64,000 nucleotides of DNA from an uncultured Candidatus Saccharibacteria bacterium. GTDB taxonomy: Bacteria; Patescibacteriota; Minisyncoccia; UBA9983. Of this stretch, positions 87 to 63,288 are shown one piece after another. The notes under the pieces are model-generated. The model was not told the origin of the DNA, made no database searches, and saw only the letters and a list, made by a program, of their open reading frames with translations. The number at the start of each line of letters is the position of its first letter. Positions within the stretch are counted from its first letter, which is position 1. Both the position numbers and the translations under genes were made by a program. The DNA lies in NCBI GenBank assembly GCA_964438405.1, contig CAYTKF010000002.1, forward strand, positions 12,404 through 76,403, read 5' to 3'.

Positions 87-116
87 GAATGCCGCCAAAG
101 AAAAACTTGGAAATTG
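87..116. repeat. Direct repeat copy 1 (GAAT-GCCGCCAAAGAAAAACTTGGAAATTG) bracketing a ~1-kb GC-rich cassette
   Basis: Near-identical 27-30 nt copy at 1091-1121 with one indel. The intervening ~1 kb is markedly more GC-rich than the rest of the window. Confidence 0.6.
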
Positions 117-425
117 TCAGCGGTGCGGCTCCGCCGCCTTTCCGTCCGCCAGCTGGCGGATTCGCGGGGGGACTTCCTCGCCGCCTGCGGCGGCGAAAGC
201 GGTTCGGACTAATTCAAGTATTCTGCAAAAATACAGGTTATGATATAATAAAAACATCGGCTCGCCTGCCCGCCTCTGGAGAGAACCATATTTTAATTTT
301 GGGAAAAGAAAATTTTTTAAGCATTGAATTCATAAGATTTTTGACAAGAAACAGCAGAAGTGCTGTTTTTTTAATTATCATTGTTTTCATTGATTTTTTG
401 TAGTATTCTTCCCATAGGAGGGTTT

Positions 426-6830: not shown

Positions 6831-9050
6831 ATGGAAGTTAAGAATATTCGGAATTTTTCCATTATTGCACATATTGACCACGGTAAGTCCACGTTGGCGG
6901 ATAGGTTTTTGGAAATCACTAAAACTGTCGAAAAAAGAAAAATGAAAGAGCAGTTTTTGGACCAGATGGAGCTGGAAAGAGAACGTGGAATAACTATTAA
7001 GATGCAACCCGTCAGAATGCTTTATAGCACGCGGATAGACGCGGATAAAGACGCAGATAAACGCGGATTACTATATGAAGATTTGACCTATAAATTAAGG
7101 GGCATGTTTTTTAATGTCTATAATAAACTTGGCCCGGGACACAAAAAGAATATCTATAGTAATGCCCTGGAAAAAGAGTTAATTAACAAGAACTTAAAAT
7201 TTGACAAAGAAAAAACAATGGAAGTTTTATATGACAATGAACAGGTTGGAATTTACAGACCAGATTTTGTTATTGAAGATAAAATTATTATCGAATTAAA
7301 AGCGCTACCCTTTATTGGTAAGTTAGAAAAAAAACAGATTTGGCATTATCTAAAAGGTTCAAATTACAGATTGGCATTATTGGTAAATTTTGGCGGAAGA
7401 GAATTACAAATAGAACGTATAATTTATGATAATATCCGCGACAATCAGCGTAATAATCAGCAAGAATCTGTGTATATTCTAAATTTGATTGACACTCCTG
7501 GGCATATTGATTTTTCATATGAGGTTTCGCGGGCGTTAAAGGCGGTTGAAGGCGCTGTGCTTCTTGTTGACGCCACTCAGGGCGTGCAGGCCCAGACAAT
7601 CGCCAACGTGGAAACGGCAAAATCTTTGGGTCTGACTATTATTCCAGTAATTAATAAAATAGATTTGGCATCAGCAATGATAGAAGAAACAAAAGAAGAA
7701 ATAAAAAAATTACTGGGCGAAACAGATATTTTGGAAGTGTCAGCCAAAAGCGGTCAGGGAGTGGAAGATTTGCTTCAAAAAATAATAAAAAGAGTGCCAG
7801 CGCCAAAATTTGAAAACGAATCTAGCCCTCGTGCCCTTGTTTTTGATTTTGAATATTCCAGCCATCAGGGAATTATTGCTTATATCAGAATGATAGACGG
7901 AGAAATAAAAAAAGGAGATGAACTTCTGCTTTCGCAGACAAAAGAAAAATTTGTTGTTGCCGAAACCGGAATTTTTCTGCCCAACCGGAATCCGGTTTTG
8001 AAATTAAGTGCGGGTGAAATCGGCTATATTGTTACAAATATTAAAAAGCCAAATGTGGCTGTTGTCGGAGATACTGTCATATCACAAAAAAATACACTGG
8101 CGCCTCTTTCTGGTTATCTTCAACCCAAGCCTGTTGTCTGGGCAAGCATATATCCTGAATCTCAGGATGATTTTGATGCGTTTAAACAAGCTCTGGAGAG
8201 ATTACGGCTCTCTGATAGTTCATTAAGTTTTGAGGAGGAGAATAATGGCGCATTGGGTCGTGGATTTAAATGCGGTTTTTTAGGCATGCTGCATTTGGAA
8301 ATTATCACAGAACGTTTGCGCCGCGAATTTAATCTTAAATTAATAACAGCGTCACCGACAGTCACTTATATGCTTGAACTTAAAGATAGTTCCCCAAAAG
8401 AAATTTATTCGCCGATTTCTTTTCCCGAGGAACATCTCATAAAAAAAATTTCAGAGCAATGGGCAGAATTGCAGATCATGGTTCCGTCGGAAAAAATGGG
8501 ATTGATTTTCCCTGTGCTTTACGACCACGAGGCTGAAGTTGGGGACACGGAAAAATTCGGAGAAAATCACACTCTTATAAAAGCCAAGATGCCGTTAAGA
8601 GAATTAATGCGTAATTTTTTTGATGAGCTCAAAAGCGCCACTTCCGGATATGGTTCTCTGGGGTATAAAATTTTGGGTTTTCAAGAAACGCCCCCGGGCA
8701 AAATAGTCCGTTTGGATATTTGGGTGGCAGACGAAATCATGCCGGTTTTTTCCCGTATAATAAGTAGAGAAAGAGTGGAATATGAATCCAGAAGAATCGT
8801 TGAAAAACTGGCGGAAATTATTCCCCGTCAGCTTTTTACAATAAAAATTCAGGCCAAGGCTCTGGGCAGAATTATTGCCTCGCGCTCCATTTCCGCTCTT
8901 AAAAAAGATGTCACCGGCTATCTTTACGGCGGAGACAGAACGCGCAAGATGAAACTTTGGCAGAAGCAGAAGCGCGGAAAAAAGAGAATGAAAGAATTTG
9001 GAAAGGTTAATATTCCCTCAGATGTTTTTATAAAGATGATGCAGAATTAA
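6831..9050 (+). CDS. lepA: Translation elongation factor 4 (LepA) carrying a ~150-aa in-frame inserted domain
   Basis: NIRNFSIIAHIDHGKSTLADR (G1), DTPGHIDF (G3), NKIDL (G4) and the LepA-specific C-terminus ...KKRMKEFGKVNIPSDVF. 739 aa against ~600 typical. Confidence 0.9.
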   Translation: MEVKNIRNFSIIAHIDHGKSTLADRFLEITKTVEKRKMKEQFLDQMELERERGITIKMQPVRMLYSTRIDADKDADKRGLLYEDLTYKLRGMFFNVYNKLGPGHKKNIYSNALEKELINKNLKFDKEKTMEVLYDNEQVGIYRPDFVIEDKIIIELKALPFIGKLEKKQIWHYLKGSNYRLALLVNFGGRELQIERIIYDNIRDNQRNNQQESVYILNLIDTPGHIDFSYEVSRALKAVEGAVLLVDATQGVQAQTIANVETAKSLGLTIIPVINKIDLASAMIEETKEEIKKLLGETDILEVSAKSGQGVEDLLQKIIKRVPAPKFENESSPRALVFDFEYSSHQGIIAYIRMIDGEIKKGDELLLSQTKEKFVVAETGIFLPNRNPVLKLSAGEIGYIVTNIKKPNVAVVGDTVISQKNTLAPLSGYLQPKPVVWASIYPESQDDFDAFKQALERLRLSDSSLSFEEENNGALGRGFKCGFLGMLHLEIITERLRREFNLKLITASPTVTYMLELKDSSPKEIYSPISFPEEHLIKKISEQWAELQIMVPSEKMGLIFPVLYDHEAEVGDTEKFGENHTLIKAKMPLRELMRNFFDELKSATSGYGSLGYKILGFQETPPGKIVRLDIWVADEIMPVFSRIISRERVEYESRRIVEKLAEIIPRQLFTIKIQAKALGRIIASRSISALKKDVTGYLYGGDRTRKMKLWQKQKRGKKRMKEFGKVNIPSDVFIKMMQN
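7028..7070 (+). repeat. Imperfect tandem repeats of ~12 nt (ACGCGGATAAAG-like, ~4 copies) inside lepA
   Basis: cACGCGGATAGACGCGGATAAAGACGCAGATAAACGCGGATTAc encodes STRIDADKDADKRG at the N-terminal junction of the inserted domain. Confidence 0.7.
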
Positions 9051-9666: not shown

Positions 9667-10476
9667 TTGGAAAAAACTAAGGGCAAGTTTGAGGTTTTTT
9701 CCGCCCAAGGCGGACCCGCCTCTGGCGGAGATTCCTTTAAAAAATATCTCCTACCCCCAATAGAAGATATTGAATCCAAACCACCTAAAAAATTTGTCAT
9801 TATTGGCCTAAGTGATTGTGATTTAGAAGCAATAATTCAGCTGGATGAAATAATGACAAGGCCAGTGCGAGATTCTCTTTACTGGCAAAGAAGGGAACAG
9901 GCGATTATTGTTGGTTCAGACGACAAAAACGCAAAAAAGTTTGTTGAAGATTATAAAGAATTTTTGGAGGAAACAATGGAAGCGTTGCTTCCACTTGGAA
10001 GCGTCGCTTCCAAGTGGGCTGACTGGACGAAGTCCATGCGCCAGCTTCTGCTTGATTCCGAGCTTTTGGCAAATGCAGTTGAATGGTCTCACGACCATAA
10101 AATCTGGGACGATTTGGCAATACGATGTTTGGGCTGTGGCATTTGCACTTATGTCTGCCCACTTTGTTACTGCTTTTCAATGGAGGATAGTGTCGGGTTT
10201 GATGGTGTATGTAAAAGATGCAAAAAATGGGACGCTTGCACCTTGCCGAATTTTTCAAAAATCGCCGGAGGACATGATTTTAGGCCGAGCATCAAAGAAA
10301 GATATTATAACTGGTTTTACCACAAATTCGTGCGCGCCTATAAAGAATATGGTAAATCCCAATGCGTCGGCTGTGGAAGATGCAAAAGCCAGTGTCCGGC
10401 TGGCATAGATATTTATGAAGTGTTAAAAATTATTTTAGAAGATTATGGAAAATATTTATCAGCCGCAAAAAATTAA
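9667..10476 (+). CDS. hydB: [NiFe]-hydrogenase (group 3b/sulfhydrogenase-like) beta subunit, Fe-S protein
   Basis: CxxCxxCxxxCP ferredoxin motifs (CLGCGICTYVCP and CVGCGRCKSQCP). First gene of the hyd operon. The start is uncertain because the ORF track start lies inside the tRNA; TTG at 9667 with an AGAGGA RBS is proposed. Confidence 0.6.
   Translation: MEKTKGKFEVFSAQGGPASGGDSFKKYLLPPIEDIESKPPKKFVIIGLSDCDLEAIIQLDEIMTRPVRDSLYWQRREQAIIVGSDDKNAKKFVEDYKEFLEETMEALLPLGSVASKWADWTKSMRQLLLDSELLANAVEWSHDHKIWDDLAIRCLGCGICTYVCPLCYCFSMEDSVGFDGVCKRCKKWDACTLPNFSKIAGGHDFRPSIKERYYNWFYHKFVRAYKEYGKSQCVGCGRCKSQCPAGIDIYEVLKIILEDYGKYLSAAKN
9977..10023. repeat. In-frame ~45-nt double-palindrome element inside hydB
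   Basis: TGGAAGC-GTT-GCTTCCA c TTGGAAGCG-T-CGCTTCCAA GTGGGCT. The reverse complement recurs at 13235-13278 inside hydA with 2-3 mismatches. Confidence 0.8.
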
Positions 10477-52062: not shown

Positions 52063-52258
52063 AATGAGAAGTTCTAAAATTTTATTATGGGCAGGCCGAT
52101 TTATTTGTATTTCAACGGCCTTAAAAAAGAGGGGATAAATTTATTAATTTTGACGGCACTATTTCTCTTTTTGTTTACTCTGATTGTTTTTACCTCACTT
52201 TTGTTATAATAGATTTCTCCGTCTTTTTAAATTCAAAAAAATCAGCTATAATTTATTT

Positions 52259-52903
52259 ATGTTTAAATCCATCAATAAAGTAATAATGAATTTGATTTTG
52301 TCAGACGTGGCTTTGCTTACCGGTTTGGGTCTTGGCGCGCCGATTTTCGCGCTTTTTTTAACTGACCATATTCAGGGCGCCAATATTGAGACAGCCGGCT
52401 TTGCCGCCGCTGCTTATTGGATTATTCATTCTTTGGCAATGATTCCCATTGGCAAATATTTGGATAAAAATCATGGGGAAAAAGACGATTTATGGGCTAT
52501 TGTTTTGGGAAATATTTTAGCTGCTATTGCTGTTTGGGGTTATATATTTTCTGAATATCCGTGGCATATTTATATTTTGCAGGGACTTTATGGATTGGGT
52601 ATGGCAATGAACATGGCTGGTTATACTGCCATTTTTACCCGGCACATAGACAAAGGAGGAGAGGCATACGAATGGAGCGTGAGAGGCGCGTGGGTGGGGA
52701 TTGGCACAGCAGTCTCCGGCGGTTTGGGCGGATGGTTTGCGTACCACTTCGGCTTTACCGCGCTTTTTACAGTGGTGATACTTTTTGTTTTATTCTCCGC
52801 GCTTCTGCCGTTTTTTATATTTAAAGAAATGAGCCCGCGGGACAAAAAAGAGCCAATTTTCCCAGAAATAAAAATCATGCAACCCCCGTCGCCAAAAGAA
52901 TAA
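52259..52903 (+). CDS. Six-TM membrane protein (MFS-like half transporter?)
   Basis: Hydrophobic helices throughout. Start at the internal ATG after a TATAAT-like box. Confidence 0.35.
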   Translation: MFKSINKVIMNLILSDVALLTGLGLGAPIFALFLTDHIQGANIETAGFAAAAYWIIHSLAMIPIGKYLDKNHGEKDDLWAIVLGNILAAIAVWGYIFSEYPWHIYILQGLYGLGMAMNMAGYTAIFTRHIDKGGEAYEWSVRGAWVGIGTAVSGGLGGWFAYHFGFTALFTVVILFVLFSALLPFFIFKEMSPRDKKEPIFPEIKIMQPPSPKE

Positions 52904-54615: not shown

Positions 54616-56319
54616 ATGGAGAACCAAGAGCTCGCGAAGATTTTTTATGAGATGGCGGTTTATTTGGAGATGATGGATGAGGTGGTTTTTAAGTTTAAGG
54701 CGTATGAGAAAGCTGGCCAGAGCATAGAGGGTTTGGCAGAAAGCGTTGAAGAAATTTATAAAAGAGGCGGCATCAAGGCACTAATGGAAATTCCGGGCAT
54801 CGGCAAGAATATCGCTGAAAAAATCAGCGAATATTTGCGAACCGGAAAAATCCGCGAATATCTGCAATTAAAGAAGAAAATTCCAGTTGATTTAGGTGGG
54901 CTGATGAAAATTGAAGGTGTCGGACCGAAGAAAATAAAAGTTTTATATAAAAAATTAAAAATAAGGAACGCCAAAGAATTGGAGATAGCTGCTAAGAAGG
55001 GAAAAATAAGCAAATTAAAAAACTTCGGCGAGAAGAGCGAAAAAAATATTCTGGAAAGCATCGAATTTCTTAAAAGAAGCAAGGGAAGGTTTTTAATCAG
55101 TGAAATTCTGCCTGTTGTGCGCGAAATTGTTGCCAAATTAAAGTCCTTAAAAGAAGTTAAACAAATAAGCCTGGCCGGCTCTCTGCGCAGAATGAAAGAA
55201 ACAATAGGGGACGCGGATATTCTTGCTGTTGCCAATAAATCTGATAAAGTTATGGATTATTTTGTTTCTCTGCCAGGAGTTGTAAAAATATGGGGAAAGG
55301 GCGCGACAAAATCTTCTGTAAGAATGAAACACGGGTTTGATGTAGATTTGCGCGTTGTGCCGGAAAAAAGTTTTGGTTCTGCCTTGCAATATTTTACCGG
55401 TTCCAAAGAACACAATATTGCCACGCGCAAAATTGCCATAGAAAAAGGATTTAAGCTGAACGAATACGGAATCAAAACAGAAAAAGAAGTTTACGCTAGG
55501 CTTGGTCTGCCATATATAGAGCCGGAATTAAGAGAAAATACAGGAGAGATAAAAGTGGCCTTAAAAAATAAATTGCCCAAGCTGGTTGAATTAAAAGATA
55601 TCCATGGCGATTTACAAATACATTCAACTTGGTCTGATGGCGTAAATTCTATTAAAGAAATGGCGGAAACGGCACAAAAAATTGGTTATGAATATATTGC
55701 CATTACTGATCACGTTGGCAGATTAAAAATTGCCGGAGCAATGGCTGAGAGCCAAATCAAAAGACAATGGCAAGAAATTGATAAACTTAACAAGTCGTTT
55801 GGCAATCCGCCGGCTGGCGGATTTAAAATATTAAAGGGCGCTGAAGTTGACATTAATCCGGACGGCACAATAGCCTGCGATGATAAAATTTTATCACAGT
55901 TCGATGTTGTCCTTGGTTCTCTGCATTCAAGTTTTAAAATTCCAAAAGAAAAAATGACAAAGAGATTGGTCCGCGCCATGGAAAATCCGTATGTTGATAT
56001 TATCGCGCATCCCACAACCAGATTAATTGCTAGGCGCGACGAAGTGGTGCTTGATTGGGAAGAAATTTTTAAGATAGCAAAACGCACGGGCACGATTTTG
56101 GAAATTAATGCTTATCCGGCCCGTCTTGATTTAAAAGATGTTTATATAAAACAGGCAATAGAAGCGGGAGTAATACTTTCTTTGGGCACTGATTCGCATG
56201 AAAAATCGCAATTGCATTTTATGGAATACGGCGTTTCTCAGGCGCGCCGTGGTTGGGCAGAAAAGAAAAATATTGTAAATTGCTGGCCATTAGATAAACT
56301 TTTGAATTTTTTGAAATAA
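54616..56319 (+). CDS. polX: Family X DNA polymerase with C-terminal PHP domain (PolX)
   Basis: N-terminal HhH motifs (IPGIGKNIAEKI, IEGVGPKKIK), Pol-beta-like palm (GSLRR...GDADIL) and PHP domain (HSTWSDG...ITDH...HPT). Confidence 0.85.
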   Translation: MENQELAKIFYEMAVYLEMMDEVVFKFKAYEKAGQSIEGLAESVEEIYKRGGIKALMEIPGIGKNIAEKISEYLRTGKIREYLQLKKKIPVDLGGLMKIEGVGPKKIKVLYKKLKIRNAKELEIAAKKGKISKLKNFGEKSEKNILESIEFLKRSKGRFLISEILPVVREIVAKLKSLKEVKQISLAGSLRRMKETIGDADILAVANKSDKVMDYFVSLPGVVKIWGKGATKSSVRMKHGFDVDLRVVPEKSFGSALQYFTGSKEHNIATRKIAIEKGFKLNEYGIKTEKEVYARLGLPYIEPELRENTGEIKVALKNKLPKLVELKDIHGDLQIHSTWSDGVNSIKEMAETAQKIGYEYIAITDHVGRLKIAGAMAESQIKRQWQEIDKLNKSFGNPPAGGFKILKGAEVDINPDGTIACDDKILSQFDVVLGSLHSSFKIPKEKMTKRLVRAMENPYVDIIAHPTTRLIARRDEVVLDWEEIFKIAKRTGTILEINAYPARLDLKDVYIKQAIEAGVILSLGTDSHEKSQLHFMEYGVSQARRGWAEKKNIVNCWPLDKLLNFLK

Positions 56320-56326
56320 AAAATGC

Positions 56327-56372
56327 CCGGCAGATAGGCGATACCCACTCGATAGGATCGCCTTTTCTGCCG
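56327..56372 (-). terminator. Long GC-rich hairpin, functional as a terminator on the minus strand
   Basis: GCCCGGCAGA-TAGGCGAT...ATCGCC-TTT-TCTGCCGGGC, with an A-run on the plus side and a T-run on the minus strand. Confidence 0.5.
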
Positions 56373-56668
56373 GGCCGCGTCAGCAGCCGCTCGGACAGTG
56401 GGCTACTCGACGCAAAAAGAACCTTCGTCGCAACATTGCACCCCTTTATTGGTCTATTTAAATGATATACAATTAATTTTACAATGTCAAGCTCGCCATT
56501 TATTTATAGGTTTCTTTCAAAAAAAACTTCAATTCCTTTTTGATATTCGCCGCCAAACTGGCCATGAATGCACAATAAGAGTCGGAATGTGAAGCTTGCT
56601 GGCGCTTTCGGCAGGCGAAACCCTTTTCATACGGGGTTCATACCTGATTGTTCTAATAAATCCAAAGA

Positions 56669-57682
56669 TCATAGATACTTTGATAATATAAGGTACAAAA
56701 ATTTATAAAAATCGCCGGCAGTCGGCAAATAGAGACGGCGTATATTTTGCCAAGTCAAAGGTTTGTAGTCACCGTGTTCAAAGATGGTGGTGAGCGCGAA
56801 TTGCGTCGGCACGCGGCCACTGAGGGCGTCGCGGAGGCGCATTGATTCAGTATAGGGGATGTAGCGGTCGTCTGTGGAGTGAAGAATAAAGAATTCCGCG
56901 GCGCTGCGTTCAATGTACTGAGAGGGCGAAAGGACGCGGCGCAGCTCAGCGAATTCCGTGCTTTCTAGAAAGTTTTCCTCTGTCAGGCCGTGATAGGCCA
57001 GTGTGTTCTTAAGGATATCGCGCGCGTAGTCGGCCGGCTCCAGATTACCCTCGATAGTTCCATAGGAAAAATTCCCGGTCGCTAAAAACTGTGCGGCGTT
57101 TTGCAGGTCATAATAGCCGCCAAAGCTCACCACGAAGGAGACATCGTCCCTTATCCTTGGATCAGCGGCGGCGGCGATCGTGGGTCCGTTGCCGTAGCTT
57201 AAGCCCATGAGGCCAAGTTTTTCAATCTTCAACTCGGGATGATTTTTGAGAAAGAGCGCGGTGGAGACCACATCACCTATATCCTTGGGTGTGATAATTT
57301 GCTGGTCTTCAAACCGCCAAGGAATGACGGCGACAAAACCGCTCCGGACAAATGTGTCGGCCAGATTGATAAGCCGCGGATCCTGCGGGCCAGGACCGAT
57401 GAGCGGCGTGTAGATGATTAGGGCGCTGCGCGGTTTTTTGGCAGCCGGCCGGTACATATACAGGGTCAGGGTGCGGCCGTCCACGCTTTGAATCTCCTGT
57501 TTTTCCTGGAGCGGCGTTTCAGTGAGCCACTGTAGCGGCCGCCAATCACCCTGCGGAATGAGTACATTGACAGCCACCGCGATAGTTTTCAGACCAACCC
57601 TGATCAATGGAATCAGTAGTATCGCCAAGAGAATGATGAGGGCGATAGCCAGCGCTATTTTTAGGCTTCGAGAAAGTTTCAT
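56669..57682 (-). CDS. Membrane-anchored alpha/beta-hydrolase (dienelactone hydrolase/peptidase S9-like)
   Basis: N-terminal TM. GLMGLSYGNG (nucleophile elbow GxSxG) and a C-terminal HGDY-type segment. Distinctly GC-rich. Confidence 0.55.
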   Translation of the reverse strand: MKLSRSLKIALAIALIILLAILLIPLIRVGLKTIAVAVNVLIPQGDWRPLQWLTETPLQEKQEIQSVDGRTLTLYMYRPAAKKPRSALIIYTPLIGPGPQDPRLINLADTFVRSGFVAVIPWRFEDQQIITPKDIGDVVSTALFLKNHPELKIEKLGLMGLSYGNGPTIAAAADPRIRDDVSFVVSFGGYYDLQNAAQFLATGNFSYGTIEGNLEPADYARDILKNTLAYHGLTEENFLESTEFAELRRVLSPSQYIERSAAEFFILHSTDDRYIPYTESMRLRDALSGRVPTQFALTTIFEHGDYKPLTWQNIRRLYLPTAGDFYKFLYLILSKYL

Positions 57683-57776
57683 AGTTATAATTGCCTCTTT
57701 AGTATATACTAAAGAGTGAATGTTTGGTATAATTAAATAAGAAAAAAGAAGCTCTTTTTACCAAGGAGGCGATAAG

Positions 57777-58396
57777 ATGCAAAGCAAGAGTTTGGAAGAA
57801 AAATTATCTGCCTATTTTTGCGGCATAAGGGCAGATAGAGAGAATTCAGAAGTTGTCTTTGTTCTGCCCAAAGCAATTCGGCGATATCAGAATGTACCAA
57901 ATCACCCCCGGATTTTAGTCTTGGAAATCCGGATAAGAGAAGCAGATATCAATACCTTGTTCGCCTTTGCAATTGCGGAGAACGAATTTGTTCTGGATAA
58001 GGATAGTATAGCCGTAGCCAAAGATGAGAACAACAAGGTTTTGTGGCACGGCTATGGCCAACCTCTTTGTCTGCTTCACAGAGAGAGAGAGGAGGATTCT
58101 ATTTACGGCCAGAGAGCCATTTGTATATCTTCGGTCTCTTGCCGGATTACACCCGGTACGAAATTTATAAGGCCGAGGTGGAAATGGTTGGCGAAGGCGG
58201 CAGGCTTCTCTGGCAGAAAATTTGCGAAGGTCAATGTTTTTGCCAGGACAGGACAATGACGGCAGAGCAGAAAAGCTACGAGGAGTGGCCACCCCTAGCA
58301 AAGTTGTTTGAGAACCCGTCTTTTCAAGACAAATTCAGGCCGTACATTTTGGGAGGACAAATTCCTCCTTGCAGTTGTTATGAACGGAAAATCTAA
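57777..58396 (+). pseudogene. Hypothetical gene split across two frames at an (AG)6 tract (frameshifted or phase-variable)
   Basis: ORF 57777-58259 (frame 0) has a good RBS (AAGGAGG) and a plausible N-terminus. ORF 58043-58396 (frame +2) has the more plausible C-terminus. The frames meet at AGAGAGAGAGAG (58080-58091). Confidence 0.45.
58080..58091. repeat. (AG)6 dinucleotide repeat at the frame junction
   Basis: CACAGAGAGAGAGAGGAGG read directly from the sequence. Confidence 0.9.
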
Positions 58397-58461
58397 ATCA
58401 AAATTGGTTTTCCGTTTTTCTCTTTCTATTTTTGAGATATAATTGAATTTATAGTGTCAAA

Positions 58462-58532
58462 CGGAGTGTAGTATAGCGGCAGTATTTACCCTTGGGGTGG
58501 GTAAGGCCCGAGTTCGACTCTCGGCACTCCGA
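58462..58532 (+). tRNA. tRNA-Pro(GGG)
   Basis: Acceptor CGGAGTG/CACTCCG is perfect. Anticodon stem TACCC/GGGTA with loop TTGGGGT. T-arm CCGAG-TTCGACT-CTCGG. Confidence 0.75.
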
Positions 58533-58533
58533 T

Positions 58534-59145
58534 ATGAAAAAATTATTTTTAGACATAGAAACTATTCCAGCAGACGAATCCCAGCACGGCGTTCTGGAAG
58601 AAATTTACGAATACAAAAAATCAAAAGGCAAAAAAGTAACAGATGATTTTGAAAGTTATTTAATACAGACTAATTTTGACGGTGCATTTGGCAGAATATT
58701 GTGTATCGGTTTGGCTGTGAATGACGAGCCAATAAAAGCCCTAACCGGAGACGAAAAAGAAATTCTTAAAAATTTTTGGGAAGAGGCGAGAGACGCCAAT
58801 CTTTTTGTGGGCCACACTATTTTTGATTTTGATATGCGTTTTATTTATCAGCGCTCAATTGTTTTAGGTGTTAAGCCGACGCAGGATTTGAGTTTCGCGC
58901 GATACAGAAGCAATCCCATTTTTGACACAATGTACGAATGGTCAAAATGGGACACACACAGTAAAATTTCTCTTGACACCTTGACTCGCGCCATGGGCAT
59001 TGCCTCGCCCAAAGAAGGAGGCATCGATGGCTCAAAAGTTTTTGACTATTACAAAGCCGGCAAACTTGATGAAATTTATGAATACTGCAAGGCAGACGTA
59101 GAAGCCGTGCGGCAAGTCTACAAGAAAATGGTTTTTGAAAAATGA
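58534..59145 (+). CDS. DEDD-type 3'-5' exonuclease (PolB-exonuclease-like, RNase H fold)
   Basis: LFLDIETIP (Exo I DxE), HTIFDFDMRF (Exo II-like), YCKADVEAVRQVY (Exo III YxxxD). Confidence 0.65.
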   Translation: MKKLFLDIETIPADESQHGVLEEIYEYKKSKGKKVTDDFESYLIQTNFDGAFGRILCIGLAVNDEPIKALTGDEKEILKNFWEEARDANLFVGHTIFDFDMRFIYQRSIVLGVKPTQDLSFARYRSNPIFDTMYEWSKWDTHSKISLDTLTRAMGIASPKEGGIDGSKVFDYYKAGKLDEIYEYCKADVEAVRQVYKKMVFEK

Positions 59146-59951
59146 AAAAAACAATTTTAATTATCGGAGTGATTATTGTGGCGGCGGGATTGTTTTTTAT
59201 TTTTTTCACCCGTACTGAAGAGCCTATTGAAAATCAAAATATCAATATCAAAGTAAACTCGCCCGCGCCAAACGAAGTTGTAAAAAGTCAGTTGCAATTA
59301 ACGGGTGAAGTCAGAACATGGTATTTTGAGGGAAGTTTCCCCGTAAAAATTTTGGACGCAAACGGAAAAGTTTTGGGTAATTCTTATGTCATGGCGCAAG
59401 GGGACTGGATGACAACAAATTTTGTAGCATTTAAGGGCGAGATAGATTTTACGCCGAGTAAAACAGAAACAGGAAAAATTGTTTTTATGAAAGATAATCC
59501 GTCGGGCCTAGCGGAACACGACGAAAGTTTTGAATTGCCGATAAAATTTGACATGACGACGGGTACACAGATATTAAAGATTTATTTTAACAACAATAAT
59601 CTTGACCCACAAATCTCGTGCAATAAAGTTTTTCCAGTTGAGAGAGAAGTTTATAAAACAGACGCGCCGGCACGACGGGCGCTGGAATTACTGCTGAAGG
59701 GTCCGGCGCAGGATGAAATTAATTCAGGATATTTAACCAGCATTAATTCTGGAGTAAAAATTCAGAGTATCACAATTCAAAACAACGTTGCCAAAGTTGA
59801 TTTTGACGAACAACTAGAAAATGCAGTTGGCGGTTCGTGCCGTGTTTCCGCCATTAGAGCGCAAATAACAGAAACTTTAAAACAATTCTCAAGCGTCAAA
59901 AGTGTAATCATTTCTATCAACGGCAGAACAGAGGACATCTTGCAACCGTAA
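59142..59951 (+). CDS. Membrane-anchored Gmad2/GerMN-domain protein
   Basis: N-terminal TM. Ig-like Gmad2-type region (LQLTGEVRTWYFEGSFPVKILD) and a C-terminal GerMN-like domain (ARRALELLLKGPAQDE...). Confidence 0.5.
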   Translation: MKKTILIIGVIIVAAGLFFIFFTRTEEPIENQNINIKVNSPAPNEVVKSQLQLTGEVRTWYFEGSFPVKILDANGKVLGNSYVMAQGDWMTTNFVAFKGEIDFTPSKTETGKIVFMKDNPSGLAEHDESFELPIKFDMTTGTQILKIYFNNNNLDPQISCNKVFPVEREVYKTDAPARRALELLLKGPAQDEINSGYLTSINSGVKIQSITIQNNVAKVDFDEQLENAVGGSCRVSAIRAQITETLKQFSSVKSVIISINGRTEDILQP

Positions 59952-61404: not shown

Positions 61405-62130
61405 ATGATAACCCGAGATATTTTTAATCTACATAATGCGGTCACCGTGGTTTCAGAAACGTGCGACATAGAAACAATAAAAAATTTGGAAAGCCATAAA
61501 GTGCCCTATATTGGGCCGAGTCCGTTTTCTTTCATTCTCTTTACAGACAAAAATTTGACCCGGGAGGCGCTTTCAAGACAGGGCTTGAATTTACCCAAGG
61601 GTTTGGTTTTTAAAAAAGGGGATTATCATATTGATTGCGCAAGAAAAATTCTAAATTTTATAAATCCGCCGTGGTTTGTGAGGCCGTCGTTAAAAATTGC
61701 CAATGATTTTTTGGAATTGGCTTCGGAAATAAGCAAGGCGTTCGGCGATTATGAAAAAATAATTATTGAAGAGTATATTTGGGGACGAGGCGTGGAATGC
61801 GGAATTGTGGAAAATTTCCGCGGACAGGAACTTTACGCGCTTCCGGTTGTGGAAGAAAAAATTTTCTGCCCGGCAGGTTTTAATTTGCAGACAAAAAGGG
61901 GAATAGAAAATATGGCAAAGATTGCGCACAATGCGCTTCATTCCAGATATTATTCAAGCCACGATTTTATTGTTTCTGAAAGGCCTGGAAAAGATAAGGG
62001 AAAAATTTATATTTTAGATTCTAAATTTTATCCTTTGCCTCAAGCTCAAGCGACAAAAGCGCTTGAGGCAATCGGGGTTTCTTATCAGGATTTTTTGGAA
62101 CATCTTGTAAATTTGGCCCTTGAGAATTAA
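61405..62130 (+). CDS. ATP-grasp domain protein (D-Ala-D-Ala ligase C-terminal-like, truncated)
   Basis: WFVRPS, IIEEYIWGRGVECGIV and LPVVEEKIF match the ATP-grasp core of Ddl. The Ddl N-terminal domain is missing. Confidence 0.5.
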   Translation: MITRDIFNLHNAVTVVSETCDIETIKNLESHKVPYIGPSPFSFILFTDKNLTREALSRQGLNLPKGLVFKKGDYHIDCARKILNFINPPWFVRPSLKIANDFLELASEISKAFGDYEKIIIEEYIWGRGVECGIVENFRGQELYALPVVEEKIFCPAGFNLQTKRGIENMAKIAHNALHSRYYSSHDFIVSERPGKDKGKIYILDSKFYPLPQAQATKALEAIGVSYQDFLEHLVNLALEN

Positions 62131-63172: not shown

Positions 63173-63174
63173 TA

Positions 63175-63245
63175 TGGACCTACGGGGAGTCGGACCCCGG
63201 CCTCCCGGATGCAAACCGGGTGCTCTACCACTAAGCTATAGGCCC
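63175..63245 (-). tRNA. tRNA-Ala(TGC)
   Basis: Reverse complement gives acceptor GGGCCTA/TAGGTCC with the G3:U70 pair, anticodon loop TTTGCAT, T-arm GGGTC... CCGGG-GTCCGACT-CCCCG. Confidence 0.75.
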
Positions 63246-63288
63246 AGTATTTATTGTATTTTAGCAAATTTTTTGCTTTAATCAATCT

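Follow-up and report, generated by a model that had tools for sequence, protein, structure and literature searches.

A stretch of bacterial DNA 64,000 nucleotides long (hereafter the window) carries an AG dinucleotide tract at the point where two overlapping reading frames switch, and the question is whether this tract serves as an on/off device for the gene around it or marks the place where that gene has been broken. The original prediction offered a phase-variable gene, a fixed frameshift and a sequencing slip as possible answers. Its description of the locus is correct as written: the tract is (AG)6 (AGAGAGAGAGAG) at 58080–58091, in the context ...CTGCTTCAC AGAGAGAGAGAG GAGGATTC..., and the two frames meet inside it. 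It is the only dinucleotide run of at least 5 units in the entire window as well as the window's longest simple repeat that is not a homopolymer, and the exact tract pattern occurred in none of 100 dinucleotide-preserving shuffles. No other contingency-type or long simple-sequence repeats, and no G or C homopolymers of at least 7 nt, were found in the 64 kb.

Two open reading frames and a rare gene family

The upstream ORF, in frame 0 (57777–58259, plus strand), encodes 160 aa. Its ATG lies 7 nt after a Shine-Dalgarno sequence, AAGGAGG (57763–57769, plus strand), which bears out the good ribosome-binding site predicted for this frame; an equivalent GGAGG is retained at the homologous loci L001 and L002. 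The second ORF, in frame +2 (58043–58396, 117 aa), overlaps the first. Removal of one AG unit, addition of two, or addition of a single nucleotide in silico yields one ORF of 205–207 aa, in agreement with the proposed fusion to ~205 aa. Loss of one unit gives 205 aa and gain of two units gives 207 aa, and either product is homologous throughout its length to the family described below. An ORF on the opposite strand (57915–58301, 128 aa) was dismissed as merely shadowing the real gene. Two further signals were read from the sequence. A putative extended −10 element, TGgTATAAT (57725–57733, plus strand), lies 43 nt upstream of the ATG; the promoter scan, which requires a −35 match, did not report it. 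At the other end, a terminator-like hairpin (58385–58419, plus strand), formed by CGGAAAATC ... GGTTTTCCG and followed by TTTTT, has arms that are invariant in L001 and L002; its 12-nt loop is above the limit of the terminator scan, which did not report it.

The homologue search with the fused frame and the comparison of orthologous loci, both suggested in the original prediction, produced four intact, full-length homologues. The search with the fused translation recovered P0001 (63% identical) and P0002 (58%), both intact proteins of 219 aa at 96% query coverage, together with P0003, which is the exact frame-0 product. The intact P0006 (213 aa) and P0007 (215 aa) came from an exhaustive HMM search covering 1.84 billion representatives, in which P0003 matched profile positions 1–109 only. 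When 5.8 billion clusters were searched with a profile, these five members were recovered and none further. A protein-guided scan added a partial, distant member, L009, from JGI metagenome contigs; the same kind of scan found no family member in the GTDB genome collection, which did not include the window's own genome.

The four intact homologues (213–219 aa) are single-ORF polypeptides, all in one frame, and they span both ORFs of the window. In a five-way alignment the frame-restored product aligns from Met1 to the C-terminal region, and invariant residues of the family occur before as well as after the break. The N-terminal half of the window gene, residues 1–103 in frame 0 (57777–58085, plus strand), is homologous to residues 1–~104 of the intact members. 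The 56 codons that follow in frame 0 (58092–58259, plus strand, ending with TGA at 58257–58259) have no homology, and P0003 matches the profile no farther than residue 104. The C-terminal half continues in frame +2 (58088–58396, plus strand), beginning with RGGFYLRPESHLYIFGLLP..., ending at TAA (58394–58396) and keeping the family-invariant residues. Homologues that stop with frame 0, named beforehand as the sign of a spurious downstream ORF, were not what the searches returned; the homologues run on in the +2 frame. These alignments indicate that the frame-0 and +2 ORFs are halves of one rare gene, split exactly at the AG tract, and that the downstream ORF, singled out at the outset as the more protein-like part, is genuine coding sequence.

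The family is extremely rare, with five clusters among 5.8 billion and no family or fold match. Scans of Pfam, NCBIfam, PHROGs and PADLOC gave no match for the fused protein or any family member, and neither did a sequence-profile search of the PDB. An AlphaFold model built from four sequences (pLDDT 69.7, pTM 0.68) shows one continuous β-rich domain over residues 10–155, followed by two C-terminal helices. A Foldseek search with it returned nothing significant (best E = 0.07 in the PDB and 0.009 in BFVD, TM ≤ 0.3). In the modelled β-rich domain the break (about residue 104) comes between strands, and for this reason the truncated product would be unlikely to fold. No conserved neighbours of the family gene were found, its context being different in each genome.

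Position and age of the break

Exactly one base is missing from the window, inside the tract, in the DNA alignment with L001 and L002. From a conserved His/Tyr codon to a Phe codon the window has 23 nt, compared with 24 nt in the two closest homologues: the window is aligned as CAC AGA GAG -AG AGA GGA GGA TTC and L001 as TAC AGA AAG AAG AGG GGA TGG TTC. Residues through His-Arg align with the intact homologues in frame 0 and those from Arg-Gly-Gly-Phe onward in frame +2; therefore, the break is placed at 58083–58087, within the tract. The restored junction would read ...LLHRERGGFYLR....

In all four intact homologues the tract site is free of repeats and is occupied instead by purine-rich Lys/Arg/Glu codons (AGAAAGAAGAGGGG in L001, CAAAAGGAAAAGGG in L002, AGCAAAGAAAGAGTT in L006 and AGTAAAAAAAGAGAT in L007). 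For this reason (AG)6 is regarded as specific to the window lineage. It may have originated along either of two paths. A 1-nt deletion in something like AGAGAGAAGAGAGG could itself have created (AG)6, or an in-frame (AG)5 that was already present could have gained one AG by replication slippage. The first path implies the length found in three homologues out of four, the two closest among them, whereas the second implies an ancestor one residue shorter, and P0006 is indeed one residue shorter at the site.

The half beyond the break carries signatures of apparent purifying selection. In the restored frame its omega is 0.29 against L001 and 0.20 against L002, the corresponding values for the pre-break half being 0.31 and 0.15, and the synonymous and non-synonymous counts of the window branch are similar to those of the L001 branch. 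The 100 codons downstream of the break contain no stop. The window departs from family-invariant residues at five positions of its own (two before the break, one at the reconstructed break codon and two after it); P0002 does so at eight. This lack of decay in the post-break half suggests that the break is young relative to the divergence from L001, or that it has been compensated.

The gene carries a second lesion near its 3′ end, where the window is 46 nt shorter than L001 and 43 nt shorter than L002, neither being a multiple of 3. DNA alignment puts the deletion junction between 58373 and 58374 (58370–58383, plus strand); the C-terminal tail is removed and the frame shifted. The conserved GTTGTTATGA, which carries the stop codon of the homologues, is still present in the window. 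It is out of frame, and with it the ancestral stop TGA (58381–58383) that it contains, and the ORF continues three codons to the TAA at 58394–58396. Pairwise dS (0.61 between the window and L001, 1.47 between the window and L002, and 1.43 between L001 and L002) makes L002 the outgroup, which places both indels on the window branch. The signs of decay are thus mixed, with an out-of-frame 3′ deletion on one side and, on the other, unchanged downstream omega and retention of conserved residues. It should be noted that the tail hit by the deletion is poorly conserved and modelled with low confidence, so that the deletion is weaker evidence of decay than it seems at first sight. At the same end of the gene L001 has a 36-nt insertion at the stop codon (L001 ~725–765), absent from the window and L002. 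This insertion comprises a perfect 14-bp hairpin (CCCGCACCTTTTAC-AG-GTAAAAGGTGCGGG) with duplicated ATGA flanks and resembles a miniature insertion or terminator element.

Other alleles and the surroundings of the gene

The exact 160-aa product is encoded in the assemblies ERZ27284374, ERZ27284377 and ERZ27284381. The DNA of their loci (L003–L005) is identical to the window through the gene, including both (AG)6 and the 3′ deletion, and shows 0–1 mismatch to it wherever aligned, up to 7.7 kb. L004 differs from the window by one SNP, at 61648, and L003 departs from it beyond 63177; therefore, the assemblies are not copies of one file. A further contig, L010 (Logan SRR8863436), is 100% identical to the window; its first base corresponds to 58142, and it misses the tract by 50 nt. 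Scans for the two flanks separated by 4–30 nt detected no other tract allele in the JGI metagenome and GTDB genome collections, and neither an in-frame allele nor a fused protein was found among the 5.8 billion clusters and 1.84 billion representatives. The tract is (AG)6 in four of four assemblies, although these nearly clonal alleles are little independent evidence on switching. In the population sampled here, (AG)6 is the consensus allele, if not a fixed one.

The departure of L003 from the window falls exactly at the 3′ end of a tRNA-Ala(TGC) gene (window 63174–63246), and L003 has no tRNA-Ala there. The replacement DNA (L003 6817–8437) opens with a short dispersed repeat that recurs at L003 ~7807–7989 and at window positions 90–119 and 1066–1121. 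The divergence is either a strain-level rearrangement at the tRNA or an assembly join through the repeat.

The GC-rich island invoked in the original prediction proved to be only partly where it had been placed. The neighbouring α/β-hydrolase gene (BD-FAE / Peptidase_S9-like; 56669–57682, minus strand), which is transcribed divergently from the frameshifted gene, has a GC content of 0.52 and contains the most GC-rich 1-kb bin (0.517), the mean for the window being 0.397 (sd 0.036, 1-kb bins). The frameshifted gene itself reaches only 0.45, and the family gene in the genomes of L001 and L002 stands at 0.43–0.44. Thus, the hydrolase gene is mostly the real source of the GC-rich signal. It is the strongest compositional outlier of the window, is preceded by a gene-free gap of 349 nt (56320–56668) and is a possible case of horizontal acquisition. 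No repeats flanking it were detected, and a search of 55800–59200 for mobile-island boundaries or repeats of tRNA-Pro fragments gave nothing convincing.

Several other features of the window deserve mention. In the 94 nt that separate the divergent hydrolase and frameshifted genes there is a 16+16-nt palindrome without a spacer (57690–57721; ATTGCCTCTTTAGTAT / ATACTAAAGAGTGAAT, 88% complementary), which looks like a putative operator for a dimeric regulator. A tRNA-Pro adjoins the family gene in two unrelated contexts, which may be a coincidence. In the window, tRNA-Pro(GGG) (58462–58532, plus strand) lies directly downstream of the gene, at a distance of 66 nt, and is not part of it, and in L006 a tRNA-Pro(TGG) (9815–9888) lies 112 nt upstream of the P0006 gene. 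Farther away, an MFS_1 transporter ORF of 239 aa (52184–52903) covers only N-terminal profile positions 5–184 of 347, with the next gene 48 nt on. The transporter is either half-size or truncated, and the ORF may be a second case of gene decay. At 1154–1597, the RNase P RNA (bacterial class A) measures 444 nt against a model of 367 positions, which implies sizeable insertions.

Frameshift or switch

In our opinion, the locus is probably a recent inactivating frameshift in a rare ~215-aa β-rich family gene, and not a selected switch. The frameshift would have arisen in a purine-rich stretch coding for Lys, Arg and Glu. On the present allele a ribosome would read 103 correct residues and then 56 out-of-frame codons before stopping at 58259, and the C-terminal half (58088–58396) would be left untranslated, or translated negligibly. 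The product is presumably non-functional, and the change is presumably not one that was selected as a switch. Of the options raised originally, the fixed frameshift fits best with homologues that have no repeat and alleles that are all (AG)6. Counting against inactivation is the undecayed state of the post-break half, which fits a very recent lesion and equally a reversible or compensated one.

The reversible alternative is a phase-variable contingency locus, in which slipped-strand mispairing would alternate ON alleles of (AG)5 or (AG)8 with the OFF allele (AG)6, the sampled population being OFF. We regard this as unlikely, although part of the original proposal stands. The frame breaks exactly in the tract, a change of −1 or +2 units toggles it in silico and restores a product of family length (to which the shorter site of P0006 may be added), and the apparent purifying selection on the downstream half is favorable to it. 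Moreover, the tract reaches the published threshold of at least 5 units for phase-variable dinucleotide repeats (PMC5909438), and coding-region AG tracts act in this manner in the mod genes of Mycoplasma. What the proposal lacks is length variation: the four alleles are uniform, the collections searched hold no ON allele, and the repeat is missing from every intact homologue, whereas the Mycoplasma tracts are conserved across orthologues and vary in length. The window's tract is, in addition, short and mid-gene, has no other contingency-type repeat for company in the 64 kb, and shares its gene with a second frameshifting deletion. Slippage could still revert the frameshift. It seems to us rather improbable that the (AG)n tract has newly evolved into a reversible on/off switch of an orphan β-rich protein in an apparently free-living, uncultivated bacterium, i.e., that it is a contingency locus at birth; were the tract heterogeneous in length among reads, the locus would exemplify the de novo origin of a repeat-based switch in an organism other than the usual host-adapted pathogens.

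We give each of the remaining accounts little credence. A sequencing or assembly error, that is, a purine run of low complexity miscalled by 1 or 2 nt in a gene that is really intact, would agree with the apparently intact downstream frame, and low-complexity tracts are classic sites of indel errors. The slip suggested in the original prediction is nevertheless very unlikely, for the same tract is present in four separately assembled records (the NCBI contig and three from ENA with MEGAHIT-style contig names), and the independent 3′ deletion is likewise identical in all four. A functional split gene, in which the N-terminal fragment and a C-terminal fragment separately initiated at GTG 58043 act together or apart, is hardly more than a slim chance. 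Both halves look conserved and the GTG is in the +2 frame with a weak AAGG 4 nt upstream, but this ribosome-binding site is weak, the start would bring in 12 residues that are out of frame, the 117-aa ORF is missing from the annotations of both gene callers, the homologues are all single polypeptides, and the model is one continuous β domain that would be cut mid-sheet.

Programmed recoding, by ribosome slippage (net −1, +2 or −4) or RNA polymerase slippage on the AG run, would yield the full-length protein and is the account to which we attach almost no weight. A 2-nt shift would allow perfect re-pairing of tRNA-Arg on AGA or of tRNA-Glu on GAG, an SD-like AGGAGG (58090–58095) abuts the tract, and the 201-nt region 58060–58260 folds better than its shuffles (z = −3.3, as opposed to −0.3 for L001 and −1.3 for L002). 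The frame-0 codons CAC AGA GAG AGA GAG GAG GAT, however, contain no X XXY YYZ heptamer, and a single-step −1 re-pairing is impossible on AGA/GAG. The predicted downstream hairpin begins 16 nt after the tract instead of the usual 5–9 nt, no Rfam frameshift element was found, and the single-frame homologues do not use a frameshift. To our knowledge, neither +2 shifts nor dinucleotide transcriptional slippage has an established bacterial precedent. In the folding of 58060–58260, which only 2 of 200 shuffles equal, the AG tract pairs with an upstream pyrimidine run, CCTCTTTGTCTGCTTC; we regard the stable fold of this region as a minor point.

As a feature, the (AG)6 frameshift is nothing out of the ordinary, and its main use lies in correcting the annotation. 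The recorded 160-aa "hypothetical protein" is a truncated product that represents the first part of a ~206-aa gene, and its entry should carry a frameshift flag; the overlapping 117-aa ORF is the tail of the same gene. The intact homologues found here are the only handle on the rare family.

Among known systems, the dinucleotide repeat is of a length similar to that of the outer-membrane protein gene switches of Helicobacter pylori. In oipA, sabA and hopZ, CT/AG dinucleotide switches of ~5–11 units set the in-frame or out-of-frame status; they lie in the 5′ signal-peptide region and vary among strains of a host-adapted pathogen that has many such loci. Neither the signal-peptide position nor strain variation nor a multitude of such loci is seen in the window. 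A closer parallel in layout is mmyCImod of M. mycoides subsp. capri, a Type III mod gene with an (AG)n tract in its coding region (PMC3498834). As in the Mycoplasma mod genes, the AG run of the window lies in the coding region, some 300 nt downstream of the start; the reference allele, being out of frame, is cut short just after the tract, and unit loss restores the full protein, which in the window gene is an in silico result. The Mycoplasma mod tracts have 10–12 or more units; orthologues from several species keep a tract at this position, its length differing among them, and a clone with the gene in frame has been isolated (PMC3498834). In contrast, the window gene has 6 units, no tract in its homologues and no length variant seen, and its protein is not a methyltransferase.

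Ordinary frameshift pseudogenes, or accessory genes that bacterial genomes have recently inactivated, likewise have intact homologues elsewhere, a single mid-gene indel, a second indel near the 3′ end and only the truncated 5′ ORF annotated. Unlike a typical pseudogene, the window gene shows no detectable downstream decay and its lesion lies in a slippage-prone repeat, which makes spontaneous reversion likelier than in a typical pseudogene.
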